64,000 nt of DNA, from sequence record LC494302.1. One strand, 5' to 3'. Both the position numbers and the translations under genes were made by a program. The stretch comes from Escherichia phage SP27. Each line of letters starts with the position of its first letter. Position 1 is the stretch's first letter. Below the pieces are notes generated by a model. It saw only the letters and a list, made by a program, of their open reading frames with translations, made no database searches and was not told where the DNA came from. Below, piece by piece: positions 1 to 64,000 of this stretch.

Positions 1-66
1 CTCTATAGTATTAAATACTTCTGTACATATATATAGTACAGAAGTATTTCTCGTTAGAGGTTTGTT

Positions 67-426
67 ATGAAGAGTTATATAAAATTAATAGCACTTGTGT
101 GTGCATTATTTTCATGTTTTAGTTATGGTGCAGCAGCAGAAACATATTGTCGTAGTACTAAGGGAACGTGGCATGTATTGACTAACGACCCTAGAAATGG
201 TAAAAATATAGTTGTTGATGGTGTGATTTATCGTTTTAAAGTAGAAAGTATTATCGGTAATAAAAAAATCTCGACTTATAGAGATGATTCTGGTACATTA
301 GCAAACGTAATATTAATTGTAGACCCAAGAACTGGTAATGGTGATATCTATATAGTAATTTACTTGGACTCATCGGTACGCCGTGACCTAGATATAGATA
401 AATTGAACTTACACTGTGAAATATAG
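67..426 (+). CDS. hypothetical secreted/periplasmic protein
   Basis: ATG with GAGG about 8 nt upstream; signal-peptide-like N-terminus MKSYIKLIALVCALFSCFSYGAAA; 119 aa. Confidence 0.6.
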   Translation: MKSYIKLIALVCALFSCFSYGAAAETYCRSTKGTWHVLTNDPRNGKNIVVDGVIYRFKVESIIGNKKISTYRDDSGTLANVILIVDPRTGNGDIYIVIYLDSSVRRDLDIDKLNLHCEI

Positions 427-437
427 GACTTAAAAAA

Positions 438-815
438 ATGGTAAACACTATTTTACTTTTGTTGTTGAATATTCCAATTATTCTGTCTTTTTTAATTTCT
501 ATTTTTATGGCAGGATATTGTTTAGTTGCAGTAATTCATTTCATTTTAACAAACAAATATGTCCTAATTTCTAAGCTTGATTCTATTTTTGCTTGCGATT
601 CGATTGCTTATAACTTGTGGTTAATTTGTTCTTGCATTATGGGAGTAACTTTCCTTCTGTATGTATTTGATGTCCTTGACCAAAAGTTCGTATACATCAG
701 TACTGGATTGGCTCTTTATCCTGCTACGTGGTACTTGATTTACGTTGGTGATATATGGTATAGTACTTATAAAGAATATCAGTACAAGAAATCACTTAAC
801 GTTGGAGGAAAATAA
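438..815 (+). CDS. hypothetical membrane protein
   Basis: 125 aa ORF packed between neighbours; several hydrophobic segments; weak RBS. Confidence 0.5.
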   Translation: MVNTILLLLLNIPIILSFLISIFMAGYCLVAVIHFILTNKYVLISKLDSIFACDSIAYNLWLICSCIMGVTFLLYVFDVLDQKFVYISTGLALYPATWYLIYVGDIWYSTYKEYQYKKSLNVGGK

Positions 816-817
816 TC

Positions 818-1192
818 ATGAAAATTATTTTATTTTTTGTATGTATGTTAATGTGTGGATTGTCATATGCTGAACCATTGGAAGGTTTAGTTTGTACAGA
901 TGGTAATATTAAACATATCTATCAAGGTGATAGTGACGATCGAGATATTGTATATATTGATGGACAATCATATACGTTTGTTAAAGAGCATACAGTAGGC
1001 GACATTAGCTTCACTGAGTTTTCTAACGACACAGACCCTAACTTCTTAGCGTTTATTGAAGTAGATGTATATGAAGATAGTAATGGCACACAATATGCTA
1101 AATTAGTTATGATGCGTCGTGGTGCTAAAGAAACTAGTTTTGGTGGCTTGTGTAAATATAAGGATTGGTATTATGTTGATTTATCAAAGTGA
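818..1192 (+). CDS. hypothetical secreted protein
   Basis: GGAGG RBS before ATG; signal-peptide-like N-terminus MKIILFFVCMLMCGLSYA. Confidence 0.6.
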   Translation: MKIILFFVCMLMCGLSYAEPLEGLVCTDGNIKHIYQGDSDDRDIVYIDGQSYTFVKEHTVGDISFTEFSNDTDPNFLAFIEVDVYEDSNGTQYAKLVMMRRGAKETSFGGLCKYKDWYYVDLSK

Positions 1193-1205
1193 TAATATTC
1201 GTGTT

Positions 1206-1364
1206 ATGCAGCATCCCTACTTACAAATCTTTGATGTGCAGCAGTATATGGAAGGTGATGACCCAAGAACCTATGGTCGTAAGTATGATTACTTCACTGT
1301 AAAGCAGTGTAAAAATATTAACGAAGTACGACAATTAGTTCAAGAACTTCAAAACAAAGGTTGA
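1206..1364 (+). CDS. hypothetical small protein (start uncertain)
   Basis: internal ATG of track ORF 1119..1364 that avoids overlap with the upstream gene; stop codon sits inside the terminator stem; weak RBS. Confidence 0.3.
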   Translation: MQHPYLQIFDVQQYMEGDDPRTYGRKYDYFTVKQCKNINEVRQLVQELQNKG

Positions 1365-1384
1365 CTTCGGTCAGCCTTTTTTGT
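1356..1384 (+). terminator. rho-independent terminator doubling as promoter (TTGACT in stem, TATAAT downstream)
   Basis: AAAGGTTGACTTCGGTCAGCCTTTTTT hairpin + T-run; approx coordinates. Confidence 0.65.
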
Positions 1385-1418
1385 TATAATTCTCTTAATA
1401 AATTAGAGGATTTTAATT

Positions 1419-1859
1419 ATGTATGTATATCGTTTTGAACTTAAATTTAGTTACATTGAACCTAACTTAGATCCTGCACGAACTGTAGGTCCGTTTGCAC
1501 GGTATTCAACCAGATACAGTACTAAAAATGGATTTGACCGTTTGCTTATGACTACACCTTCTCAATTCCAACCTGAACCAACTGAGGATGGGATCTATTC
1601 AATCAAAAGTGGATGGGTATTTGGCTGTCAAAGTTTGAAAGATTTGTTCAGATTCTTCACTATGGACTTGGGTAAATTGCATCGTGCTGGGTTTGCTATA
1701 TCTGTATATGAAGTTCCAGACCACCATGTAGACATTGGTCGTAATCAGGTTCAGTACTATTGCGGTAGTGCTAAATTAGTTCGTATCATGTCAGTTAAGG
1801 AAGCAAAGGATGAGTTCCGACAAAGTAAAAGAGAAACACATGAGGTAATATATGGATAA
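1419..1859 (+). CDS. hypothetical protein
   Basis: AGAGGA RBS; 146 aa ORF downstream of a terminator/promoter module. Confidence 0.55.
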   Translation: MYVYRFELKFSYIEPNLDPARTVGPFARYSTRYSTKNGFDRLLMTTPSQFQPEPTEDGIYSIKSGWVFGCQSLKDLFRFFTMDLGKLHRAGFAISVYEVPDHHVDIGRNQVQYYCGSAKLVRIMSVKEAKDEFRQSKRETHEVIYG

Positions 1860-62105: not shown

Positions 62106-62332
62106 AACACTTGACAGATGATGAACATGGGCTTATAGTAATGGATGTAATCAACATCGAATACAAAAAGTTGATACGCTACCGTTGTTATGAAGATAAG
62201 CAACTCGTTCTAGCAGAACAGAAGTTGTTTCGACTCTTAAACACAAACTTCCAAGCACAATACGAAGAATCGTATATGTACCTTTTGGCGAGGAAAGCAA
62301 AAAGAGATTATGAAAATTTTAAGCAAAGGTGA
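62102..62332 (+). CDS. small protein, S2 tandem family
   Basis: ATGA overlap; motif LNTNFQAQY. Confidence 0.6.
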   Translation: MKHLTDDEHGLIVMDVINIEYKKLIRYRCYEDKQLVLAEQKLFRLLNTNFQAQYEESYMYLLARKAKRDYENFKQR

Positions 62333-62525
62333 TTCAGTAATATTACTTATAGAGAGTTCAAGTAAATTCTTAAACATAACACTGTCTGATATAGATGAAG
62401 ATGACAAAGAAGTACTGAGAGCAGATTTAAGAGTACTGTTACATATCGGAACAAACCTACAAGAAGAATATGTAGAATGCTACATCAATGAACTTAAAGA
62501 ATCAGTACTGAGAAAATGCAAATGA
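62310..62525 (+). CDS. small protein, S2 tandem family
   Basis: motif IGTNLQEEYV. Confidence 0.6.
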   Translation: MKILSKGDSVILLIESSSKFLNITLSDIDEDDKEVLRADLRVLLHIGTNLQEEYVECYINELKESVLRKCK

Positions 62526-62743
62526 AAATCATTACCGATGCAGAATACCTAACAATCATAAATGGACTGTTTTTGAAGCTCTTCGTCATTAACACATCAG
62601 ATATACCAGATATGGATAAAATTATTAAGAGAAATGAAGTCTATGTTCTAGCTACCCTTGGAACGAACTATCAAGAACACGACATTAAAGATTATATTAA
62701 TACACTTAAACGAGCGATTGAACTAAAATGCCAAAACCACTAG
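62522..62743 (+). CDS. small protein, S2 tandem family
   Basis: internal ATG 62522 overlapping upstream TGA; motif LGTNYQEHDI. Confidence 0.6.
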   Translation: MKIITDAEYLTIINGLFLKLFVINTSDIPDMDKIIKRNEVYVLATLGTNYQEHDIKDYINTLKRAIELKCQNH

Positions 62744-62943
62744 GAACAGCAGAATACATTGAACTAATGGCATTACACTTCTCATCCTTTCAGAAACTTA
62801 GGCGAGAATCAAAGAATGATTTAGAATATACCATCAGAGGTTCCGATTTAAGAATGCTTCTCACCCTAGACACAGATTCCCAAGAGCGATTTGTCAATGA
62901 GCATATTAGAGCACTTTTAATGGAAATTCAAAGTAAACTATGA
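62728..62943 (+). CDS. small protein, S2 tandem family
   Basis: motif LDTDSQERFV. Confidence 0.55.
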   Translation: MPKPLGTAEYIELMALHFSSFQKLRRESKNDLEYTIRGSDLRMLLTLDTDSQERFVNEHIRALLMEIQSKL

Positions 62944-63155
62944 AGATAATATCAAACCAAGAGTACTTGGCACTATTCAGGAAGAATAATCACAAATATA
63001 TGGCACTTGATTCAAGAACTGATATAAGTGAACTTGAAAAAAATCTTTTGCGTTCAGAGATGATAGTACTGACACTCTTAGGAACACAGCATCAAGAGAG
63101 AACTGTTAATTCACACATAGGTATTCTTATACAGATTGTACTGGAAAAGATATGA
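62940..63155 (+). CDS. small protein, S2 tandem family
   Basis: ATGA overlap; motif LGTQHQERTV. Confidence 0.6.
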   Translation: MKIISNQEYLALFRKNNHKYMALDSRTDISELEKNLLRSEMIVLTLLGTQHQERTVNSHIGILIQIVLEKI

Positions 63156-63373
63156 GAATCATAACACAACAAGATATTCTTAAGTTCACAAGGGTTCATG
63201 CATCTGAATTTGATGCTATATTATCAAAAAGTTACAACAACCCTTATACAGAAGATGTACATTACAGTGAATTATGGATGTATATACTTTTAGGTACAAA
63301 TAAACAAGAGCAAGCAGTACAGAAGTATTTGACAGCTTTACGTGATGCTACTGCTAATGGAGTATGTGTTTAA
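63152..63373 (+). CDS. small protein, S2 tandem family
   Basis: ATGA overlap; motif LGTNKQEQAV. Confidence 0.6.
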   Translation: MRIITQQDILKFTRVHASEFDAILSKSYNNPYTEDVHYSELWMYILLGTNKQEQAVQKYLTALRDATANGVCV

Positions 63374-63374
63374 T

Positions 63375-63617
63375 ATGAAAGTACTGACAGAACTAGAAAT
63401 GTATCATAGATTTAATAAGTACTATCATTTACTTAAGCCTATACAGAGGATTAAATGTCCATTTGAAGAGAAACAGGTTTTAATCTATGAGCACAAGTTC
63501 TTTGTATCATTAGGTACAGATCAACAAGAGTACTATTTGACGTTGTACTTGATTACATTAATAGATTTAATTCACTATAAAACAAAACAAGCTAATAAAG
63601 AGAAATATGAAAACTAA
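63375..63617 (+). CDS. small protein, S2 tandem family (last member)
   Basis: internal ATG 63375 (MKVLTELEMY); motif LGTDQQEYYL. Confidence 0.55.
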   Translation: MKVLTELEMYHRFNKYYHLLKPIQRIKCPFEEKQVLIYEHKFFVSLGTDQQEYYLTLYLITLIDLIHYKTKQANKEKYEN

Positions 63618-63951
63618 TATACAACTCAAGGTATATAAATCATTTGAACATACATATATCAAAAGTAGTCTATGTAGAGATGTAATGGATTACAAGGGTA
63701 AGCCATTCACAATTACCTATGATTCTTATGTTAGTGATTTATATATATCATTTGTTAATTACGAAAATAAAATATACAAGCACGTTGATATTAAAGATTT
63801 AAGTACTTTATCTGAAGAGGAATACTTTCAGGAATCATTAGTATGGGATTTAGAGTTTCCTATGCCATTAGTACATAAGATGATAGTACTAATGAAAGAA
63901 TCTAAACAGGAGCCTAATGGTGATTATGAAGAACACACAGTTGAGTATTAA
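63607..63951 (+). CDS. hypothetical protein (EEYFQES motif shared with 3065..3637)
   Basis: 114 aa ORF after the S2 array. Confidence 0.5.
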   Translation: MKTNIQLKVYKSFEHTYIKSSLCRDVMDYKGKPFTITYDSYVSDLYISFVNYENKIYKHVDIKDLSTLSEEEYFQESLVWDLEFPMPLVHKMIVLMKESKQEPNGDYEEHTVEY

Positions 63952-64000
63952 AAGTACTGATAATATTAAGAGTTATACAAGCTCAAGTACTGTGACAATC

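Follow-up and report, generated by a model that had tools for sequence, protein, structure and literature searches.

The window analysed here, the whole 64,000-nucleotide stretch of Escherichia phage SP27 (LC494302.1), belongs to the Asteriusvirus group of Rak2-like jumbo coliphages and carries 280 copies of the hexamer AGTACT, a palindrome that reads the same on both strands. Its relatives by megablast are phAPEC6 (98% identity over 1-20 kb of the window), 121Q, PBECO4 and G17. We inferred the boundaries of the direct terminal repeat (DTR) by homology, mapping onto the window the published termini of fEgEco12, whose DTR is given as 20,993 bp in its genome paper (PMC13070987), and of vB_Ec-M-J, whose DTR occupies 1-21,525. 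By this mapping the window opens with unique DNA from the right-hand side of the genome (1-36.8 kb) and continues with a single copy of the ~21 kb repeat (about 36,822-57,750, plus strand), which is the early region and holds 135 AGTACT sites, more densely than elsewhere in the window. From ~57,750 onward it enters the left-hand unique part and covers the initial 6 kb of that. Dozens of small plus-strand genes make up the repeat, each with a near-consensus sigma70 promoter ahead of it. The physical left genome end is a segment poor in open reading frames (ORFs) at 36,500-38,500 with 20 AGTACT sites; it corresponds to the 1.9-kb ORF-free segment in which the original prediction had counted roughly 19 copies by eye. 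A scan of the 64 kb for RNA genes found no Rfam family and no tRNA.

AGTACT occurs in the window at about 13 times its chance frequency. Base composition predicts 21.6 copies, Markov models of order 1, 2 and 3 predict 22.2, 48.8 and 106.9, and dinucleotide-preserving shuffles (n=100) gave a mean of 21.0 ± 4.8 with a maximum of 35. At order 3 the ratio of observed to expected copies (O/E) is 2.62 (z 16.7), which ranks AGTACT first among all 4,096 hexamers, ahead of its sub-words CAGTAC and GTACTG at ranks 2 and 3; the order 4 expectation of 222.7 comes from a model that already includes the inflated 5-mers. The original prediction had called the word strongly over-represented, and the count against a Markov background agrees: 280 copies stand against 21 ± 5, and the order 3 ratio is well away from 1. 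The excess belongs to the exact word, since variants with one mismatch reach at most threefold as against 13-fold. Extended forms share in it to different degrees. CAGTACTG is present 64 times against 0.7 expected and makes up 23% of AGTACT sites, so the claim that it is frequent stands. The same could not be upheld for the 12-mer TTCAGTACTGAA, which with 7 exact copies and 24 at no more than one mismatch, against 0.19 expected, is a small minority of sites though far above chance.

As claimed at the outset, the sites are spread over coding sequence (177), the spacers and -35 flanks of sigma70-like promoters (40) and about 10 terminator stems, with 63 sites in intergenic DNA other than promoters. 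Their density is 3.0-3.3 per kb over 1-32 kb, 6.8 per kb over 32.1-36.8 kb, 10.1 per kb in the ORF-poor left end of the repeat and 6.1 per kb in the rest of it; it is zero from 57,615 to 62,410 and 7.5 per kb over 62.4-64 kb. The flanks are symmetric: 45% of sites have C at -1 (only 9% have G there) and 46% have G at +1, and T at -3/-4 is answered by A at +3/+4; this holds both within and outside coding sequence. Flank information is near zero beyond about ±4 bp, so the sites do not derive from copying of a longer element. A dispersed repeat of the miniature inverted-repeat transposable element or repetitive extragenic palindrome type was likewise rejected: there is no longer shared unit, the coding contexts are unique and only the terminators and some promoters are duplicated. 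Non-coding sites extend to the palindrome ATTCAGTACTGAAT. At the left genome end the palindromes reach 16-20 bp and sites lengthen to ATTATTCAGTACTGAATAAT; among the 20 sites in 36,500-38,500 the longer (ATTA)TTCAGTACTGAA(TAAT) predominates, with copies at 37,158, 37,883, 38,351 and 38,404 as examples.

At the early promoters AGTACT occupies fixed positions. In 18 promoters of the window it lies 7-8 nt before the -10 hexamer (TTGACA-N10-AGTACTG-TATAAT), as at 37,186-37,213 on the plus strand and at 9,941, 47,549, 48,140, 50,292, 51,602, 51,873 and 54,445. In 11 promoters it overlaps the -35 hexamer (AAAAGTAC-TTGCAA), at an offset of -27 from the -10. Several promoters carry both sites, 20-22 bp apart: at 42,114-42,146 (plus strand) AGTAC-TTGCAA puts one AGTACT over the -35 (42,114), and a 16-nt spacer ending in AGTACTG (42,134) leads to TATAAT at 42,141; the same layout recurs at 42,899, 46,522 and 45,005. 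These two-site promoters are the source of a modest peak at 20-21 bp in the inter-site spacing, the sole signal of helical phasing. GAP32 uses the same layout (AGTACT-TTGACA-N10-AGTACTT-TATAAT; offsets -7 and -27 to -29 from the -10), and the geometry is kept although the GAP32 and SP27 promoters have no alignable DNA in common. PA5oct has no such sites. The fixed distance kept across relatives that is expected of a promoter operator was thus found, for only ~40 of the 280 sites.

The terminators with an AGTACT stem, GCCAGTAC..GTACTGGC, stand behind RCC1-like paralogues between 17.8 and 30.9 kb. In the example at 24,760-24,780 (minus strand) AGCCAGTACTGAGTACTGGCT is followed by a T tract; others include those at 19,065, 21,441, 22,728, 23,950, 26,021, 28,451 and 30,841. 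The genes concerned, ~12 minus-strand paralogues of 370-430 amino acids at 17,850-32,064, carry the annotation RCC1-like or 'regulator of chromosome condensation' in relatives, and each is followed by its own terminator of this kind.

Several lines of evidence show that the word is maintained. Within coding sequence it appears in all three frames (80/43/62), and ORFs of at least 100 amino acids hold 111 copies against 31 ± 5 when synonymous codons are shuffled within genes and 17 ± 4 when codon order is shuffled; AGTACT thus shapes the choice of codons as well as the order of amino acids. Of the 50 sites that could be aligned between SP27 and ph0011 (85% identity), 34 are conserved, whereas hexamers of the same composition are conserved at 43% (P 3e-4); for fEgEco12 (95% identity) the figures are 120 of 125 and 83% (P 1e-5). 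Between relatives, the sites gained and the sites lost balance out. The tail-sheath gene, compared across five genomes of four genera (66-86% amino-acid identity), has 6-11 copies in each against 0.9 expected; one position is common to all five, several are common to three or four, and 10 are unique or lineage-specific, a pattern that amounts to long-term retention combined with turnover of sites. Spacing is more even than random, with coefficients of variation (CV) of 0.79 (P 0.006) and 0.76 (P 0.001) in the window and of 0.79-0.88 across the whole genome of a relative, where random placement gives 0.99 and where the largest gaps fall below or just over the 5th percentile of random placement. 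A mutational drive of the Vsr very-short-patch type was considered and rejected: words one mismatch away, among them the transition neighbours AGTATT/AATACT and AGTGCT/AGCACT, show no depletion as a set and for the most part a mild enrichment. The excess is not due to chance, composition, codon usage or repeat copies, and it is kept by purifying selection at the DNA level.

The excess is also a property of a clade. It amounts to 7-15-fold in all four sampled enterobacterial Rak2-like genera: 7-fold in RaK2 (50 kb), 15-fold in GAP32 (50 kb), 7-fold in CBB (20 kb), 7-fold in Yersinia phage fHe-Yen9-04 (20 kb) and 11-fold in the Asteriusvirus EJP2 (20 kb), each of them without a single GCGC in the sampled DNA. 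In the complete 352-kb genome of EC22.5-2 there are 919 copies against 119 expected (7.7-fold), 86% of them in genes. In the sampled relatives from outside the Enterobacterales the word is scarce and GCGC is present: Pseudomonas phage PA5oct (4 AGTACT against 17 expected), Agrobacterium phage Atu_ph07 (1 against 8.4) and Xanthomonas phage XacN1 (0 against 5.9). The phage densities of 2.6-4.4 per kb are 40-70 times that of a 50-kb sample of E. coli K-12, which has 3 copies (0.06 per kb). The phi92-like coliphage muut retains GCGC and has 2 AGTACT in 20.5 kb against 6.8 expected, both inside a 0.5 kb segment that it has in common with the Asteriusvirus repeat. An early gene with its AGTACT-bearing promoter (51,167-51,949 of the window; 10,001-10,510 of the sampled muut DNA) is 89-92% identical in the two phages. 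Further small early genes have 80-90% matches in rV5-like and phi92-like coliphages, which indicates that unrelated coliphage families exchange early genes.

The same phages purge other palindromes. Phage genomes are known to avoid short palindromes, and those containing G and C are avoided here to an extreme: GCGC is absent from the window (66 expected) and from the 352 kb of EC22.5-2 (294 expected), and 24 of the 64 palindromic hexamers in the window and 23 in EC22.5-2 have no copy at all. CTAG is under-represented in the window, at 0.45-fold.

Beside the repeat the pattern breaks off. A tract of 4.8 kb (57,615-62,410, plus strand) that starts ~135 bp from the right DTR boundary is free of AGTACT where ~15 sites would be expected at coding density (P ~4e-7), and it is free of the word in EC22.5-2 and vB_Ec-M-J as well. 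It encodes ~20 tandem overlapping paralogues of 65-96 amino acids with an LGTNYQE motif; AGTAC occurs once in it against 5.6 expected and TGTACT 8 times against 1, mostly in conserved Val-Leu-Gly codons. The wider array (57,848-63,617), which begins right after the terminal repeat, has more than 20 such overlapping small genes, divergent paralogues with the pattern (L/F)LGTNYQE..Y....I.AL. Within it, an island of 12 AGTACT sites (62,411-63,991, plus strand) is flanked in relatives by the first tract and by a second AGTACT-free tract of 8.3 kb, which lies past the right end of the window (58,324-66,610 in EC22.5-2; ~29.3-37.3 kb in vB_Ec-M-J). In these two independent genomes the second tract carries AGTACA 45 times on the sense (plus) strand, against ~3-5 expected, in all three frames and with the same left-flank preferences as AGTACT sites, and GTACT 0 times against 7.7 expected. 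It looks as if one half-site had been systematically switched off, which hints at a direction-dependent aspect of the function.

Taken together, AGTACT is best read as an early-promoter operator plus a genome-wide mark for a lineage-specific DNA-binding or DNA-modifying protein. In the version that we favour, tentatively and with rather less than even confidence, it would form the core of the palindrome ATTCAGTACTGAAT, recognized in double-stranded DNA by a sequence-specific, probably dimeric, putative protein of the phage lineage; this is where symmetric flanks, extended palindromes, conserved promoter geometry and clade specificity all point. Such a protein would be encoded by the enterobacterial Rak2-like phages themselves. 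Bound at early promoters, it would sit where regions 4 and 3 of the RNA polymerase sigma subunit make contact, which argues for an operator role, most simply the shut-off of early transcription. The ~900 sites per genome, most of them intragenic, would present the same protein with dense and regular landing points from which it may mark, coat or organise phage DNA selectively.

Several observations weigh against a binding protein of this kind. The information is packed into a contiguous 6-bp palindrome, and so compact a core is what one expects of a Type II methyltransferase or nuclease more than of a transcription factor. Because ~63% of the sites in the window are intragenic and without visible regulatory context, a regulator site alone does not cover the finding. 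A binding protein also predicts neither the AGTACT-free tracts nor the one-strand AGTACA array of the second tract. Finally, Pfam and PHROG scans of ~35 window proteins and a Pfam scan of ~390 EC22.5-2 proteins of 85-420 amino acids yielded no candidate binder: helix-turn-helix, ParB, TetR and ribbon-helix-helix families are all missing among the matches listed for the two sets, in which most proteins match no family, and no ScaI-like nuclease family is among those listed for EC22.5-2. The matches listed for EC22.5-2 do include a Dam-type methyltransferase, a C5 methyltransferase, a sigma70-family sigma factor, HNH, T5orf172 and TnsA-like nucleases and a PD-(D/E)XK protein. The proposal that AGTACT is a sequence-specific protein site rather than the product of chance has fared in two ways: the sites are non-random, selected, symmetric and fixed in position at promoters, all of which fits it, and no binding, nicking, packaging or modifying protein was identified among the proteins scanned. 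The sigma factor of EC22.5-2 (regions 2, 3 and 4) is encoded by one gene within ~307-350 kb. An ORF at 9,544-9,939 of the window is labelled 'restriction enzyme' in CRJP21; this label is unsupported, because the ORF matches no Pfam family and only a PHROG without assigned function.

The main rival to a binding site is that a DNA methyltransferase encoded by the phage targets AGTACT and that the methyl mark itself matters, both as protection of the ScaI/Eco255I type and as an epigenetic signal (old versus new DNA, promoter timing, strand discrimination in repair, or phage versus host), with site density selected as GATC density is for Dam, SeqA and MutH in E. coli. We regard this as possible, though less likely than a binding protein. 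A compact palindrome of 6 bp with sharp specificity suits such an enzyme, and the presence of ~900 Type II targets in a genome purged of 23-24 other palindromic hexamers and of all GCGC argues for specific protection of this one. Avoidance of AGTACT by the unrelated coliphage muut is consistent with such restriction in the host range, and the even spacing of one site per 230-450 bp resembles that of GATC in E. coli. Relatives encode a Dam-type N6-adenine methyltransferase (PF05869; 91,151-91,672 in EC22.5-2) and a short C5 methyltransferase (307,362-308,222) whose best structural-database matches are eukaryotic DNMT3 enzymes, and RaK2 DNA is described as methylated (PMC3622015). Protection, however, accounts for tolerance of the word and not for its 8-15-fold excess. 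The Type II core is as sharp as expected, but the flank preferences of at least 4 bp on each side and the non-coding palindromes of 16-20 bp reach beyond the footprint of a Type II enzyme. AGTACT cannot be attributed to either methyltransferase: the RaK2 bisulfite data (PMC3622015) pointed to CpG methylation, whereas AGTACT contains no CpG, and the Dam-type enzyme, which is so widespread by tblastn that its distribution is uninformative on specificity, is only 42% identical between two AGTACT-rich genera. MutH-, MutS- and MutL-like genes are absent among the Pfam matches listed for EC22.5-2. A host protein of the Enterobacterales, exploited by the phage for example to block division, appears very improbable as the reader. 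The limitation of the excess to relatives that infect Enterobacterales would fit, as would the resemblance to known operators: the SlmA site GTGAGTACTCAC includes AGTACT in its core, TrpR reads GTACT half-sites, and a half-site like that of LexA (TACTGTATA) lies within AGTACTGTATAAT. SlmA requires a 12-bp palindrome with G and T at positions 1-2, a purine at 3 and A and G at 4-5 (PMC3020112). Yet the window contains 0 copies of GTRAGYRCTYAC and 0 of GAGTACTC, G at -1 is disfavoured and C preferred, and there is no G/T preference at -3/-2; LexA boxes (CTGT-N8-ACAG) number 0 in the 64 kb, as does GTACT-N8-AGTAC, and the CTAG needed by TrpR is under-represented. With no match for any of the three in the window, a host reader is largely refuted as far as these proteins are concerned. 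The phi92-like phage muut, which shares the host and goes without the motif, makes a phage-lineage factor likelier than a host factor.

The tracts beside the repeat bear on a further alternative, in which AGTAC(T/A) is a word readable by strand and used by a machine moving along one strand, such as a primase start or the polar signal of a translocase; the palindrome AGTACT would then serve both directions, and a single orientation would be used near a fixed origin or terminus. The 45 AGTACA against 0 GTACT in the second tract, the AGTACT-like left flanks of these sites and the even spacing are in its favour. So is the first tract, where depletion of AGTAC and the rise in TGTACT make polarity appear to diverge from the island between the two. 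The 8 TGTACT of the first tract, however, largely reflect one conserved Val-Leu-Gly string of the paralogue family, and the fixed promoter positions and symmetric flanks are left unaccounted for. Known primases recognise trinucleotides. Away from 50-90 kb of the genome, AGTACA is only 1.3-1.6 times as frequent as TGTACT (sense/antisense). Compared with polar words of the Chi or FtsK-orienting (KOPS) type, AGTACT is symmetric, has a one-strand array only in the relatives' tract and shows weak skew genome-wide, and because of this weak skew elsewhere we consider a strand-read signal unlikely. Least probable of all is a passive by-product, whether of a Ser-Thr (AGT ACT) codon or dipeptide preference with phage tRNAs, of duplicated elements or of a lone palindrome left unpurged. 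AGT and ACT are indeed favoured codons, frame 0 (Ser-Thr) is the commonest, ~10 terminator sites were duplicated together with RCC1-like paralogues, and several promoters are nearly identical to one another. But shuffles that keep protein and codon usage fall far short of the observed count, enrichment extends to every frame and to non-coding DNA, and the contexts of most sites are unique. Mere non-removal predicts an O/E of ~1 and not 8-15, and it leaves unexplained why sites are kept above control hexamers and evenly spaced; nor do the undepleted one-off neighbours give any sign of repair-driven conversion. As a full explanation the by-product is already refuted.

A broader reading can be put on the same sites. 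Rak2-like enterobacterial jumbo phages might label an unmodified, palindrome-purged chromosome with ~900 AGTACT, and a phage-encoded reader, or a writer-reader pair, might use them to tell phage from host DNA. We put this forward as speculative and somewhat doubtful. The reader may direct transcription shut-off, protection, repair or replication to the tagged DNA, and the AGTACT-free and one-strand AGTACA tracts could then be regions that escape it or are read one way only. Where T4 uses hydroxymethylcytosine as a chemical self-mark, an AGTACT tag would do the same by sequence. AGTACT shows the descriptive features of a self-tag: 7.7-fold excess genome-wide, 86% of sites in genes, copies in terminator stems, and 2.6-4.4 sites per kb against 0.06 in the host sample. 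In these respects AGTACT resembles the DNA uptake sequences (DUS) of Neisseria and the uptake signal sequences (USS) of Haemophilus, short words far above chance in coding and non-coding DNA, often paired in terminator hairpins, that serve as a sequence-coded 'self' label read by one protein. DUS and USS differ in being 9-12 nt long, non-palindromic, chromosomal and driven by uptake and recombination, whereas AGTACT is a 6-bp palindrome of a lytic phage that has no uptake step, and it also has fixed promoter positions.

Other known systems share single features with AGTACT. Like GATC in the Dam/SeqA/MutH system, it is a palindromic Type II-like word at ~1 per 250-450 bp with proposed roles both at promoters and chromosome-wide, and the phages encode orphan methyltransferases; GATC, however, is a 4-mer at about chance frequency, while AGTACT needs an 8-15-fold excess to reach that density. 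Palindromes bound by dimers and reused at promoters or scattered over a replicon are known from RK2 (KorB at OB next to the -35, KorA at OA over the -10), ParB-parS, Noc-NBS and SlmA-SBS. Those systems have tens of sites of 12-16 bp, almost none of them coding, in contrast to ~900 phage sites with 86% in genes; moreover, KorA-like, ParB and TetR proteins were not detected among the listed matches and the SlmA flank rules are violated. SPO1 and the pre-early (first-step-transfer) region of T5 offer a likeness in architecture, as large virulent phages with long terminal repeats that hold clustered strong early promoters of host type. TF1 of SPO1 is an abundant phage DNA-binding protein that prefers and represses early-promoter sites; it differs in recognising hydroxymethyluracil DNA, without a simple consensus, and no HU-like gene was found here. 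The ten enzymes tried on fEgEco12 DNA (EcoRI, NsiI, SpeI and others; PMC13070987) digest it normally, so it carries no gross modification. The target of ScaI and Eco255I (AGT^ACT) is identical in sequence, with a specificity confined to the hexamer. Restriction targets are normally avoided by phages, as are 23-24 palindromes here, and AGTACT is instead enriched. Chi (GCTGGTGG) is likewise an over-represented word with a role in protecting or organising the genome and is clustered in the terminal repeat of SP27, but it is an asymmetric 8-mer read one way by the host RecBCD, and AGTACT is symmetric and lineage-specific.

The window has further features. Chi itself occurs 9 times on the plus strand of the window against 0.2 expected, at 9,464 and, inside the terminal repeat, at 44,380, 48,377, 49,839, 51,107, 53,179, 54,583, 56,160 and 56,382. 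The eight copies in the repeat are co-oriented and have unrelated contexts; by their orientation they would face RecBCD entering at the right-hand genome end. In the ORF-poor left end of the repeat, an iteron-like array at 37,567-37,727 consists of short repeats phased at 8 bp (CTGGATGG, CTAGACGG, CTAAACGG) and could be an origin, injection or packaging signal. A different terminator hairpin, AAAGGGTTGACTTCGGTCAGCCCTTTTT, with a UUCG-type loop, lies at 12,986-13,019 and is directly followed by a -10-like TATAAT; similar copies are found near 1,361, 4,604, 4,787, 7,215, 11,710, 46,991, 51,026, 54,018 and 56,274. The 34-bp copy at 12,986 is 100% identical in Serratia phage BF, Pectobacterium phage CBB and Erwinia phages, and has 90-95% matches in T4-like phages of Vibrio and Aeromonas.

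Full-text literature searches and searches by term in the RaK2, CBB, phAPEC6 and fEgEco12 genome papers found no earlier report of the AGTACT excess, and literature searches turned up nothing relevant that ties AGTACT, CAGTACTG or ScaI to these phages. That a clade purges nearly all short palindromes and yet multiplies one of them ~10-fold implies a strong lineage-specific function. A 12-14 bp oligonucleotide of the TTCAGTACTGAA type, with TTCAGTTCTGAA as control, could bait the factor. AGTACT provides a defined cis-element for how early transcription from the terminal repeat is switched off, and a handle on phages of ~350 kb, more than 80% of whose genes lack a known function. The excess might also identify the clade bioinformatically in metagenomes, and it flags horizontally transferred pieces, as the two sites of muut, exactly in the segment in common with the Asteriusvirus repeat, illustrate.

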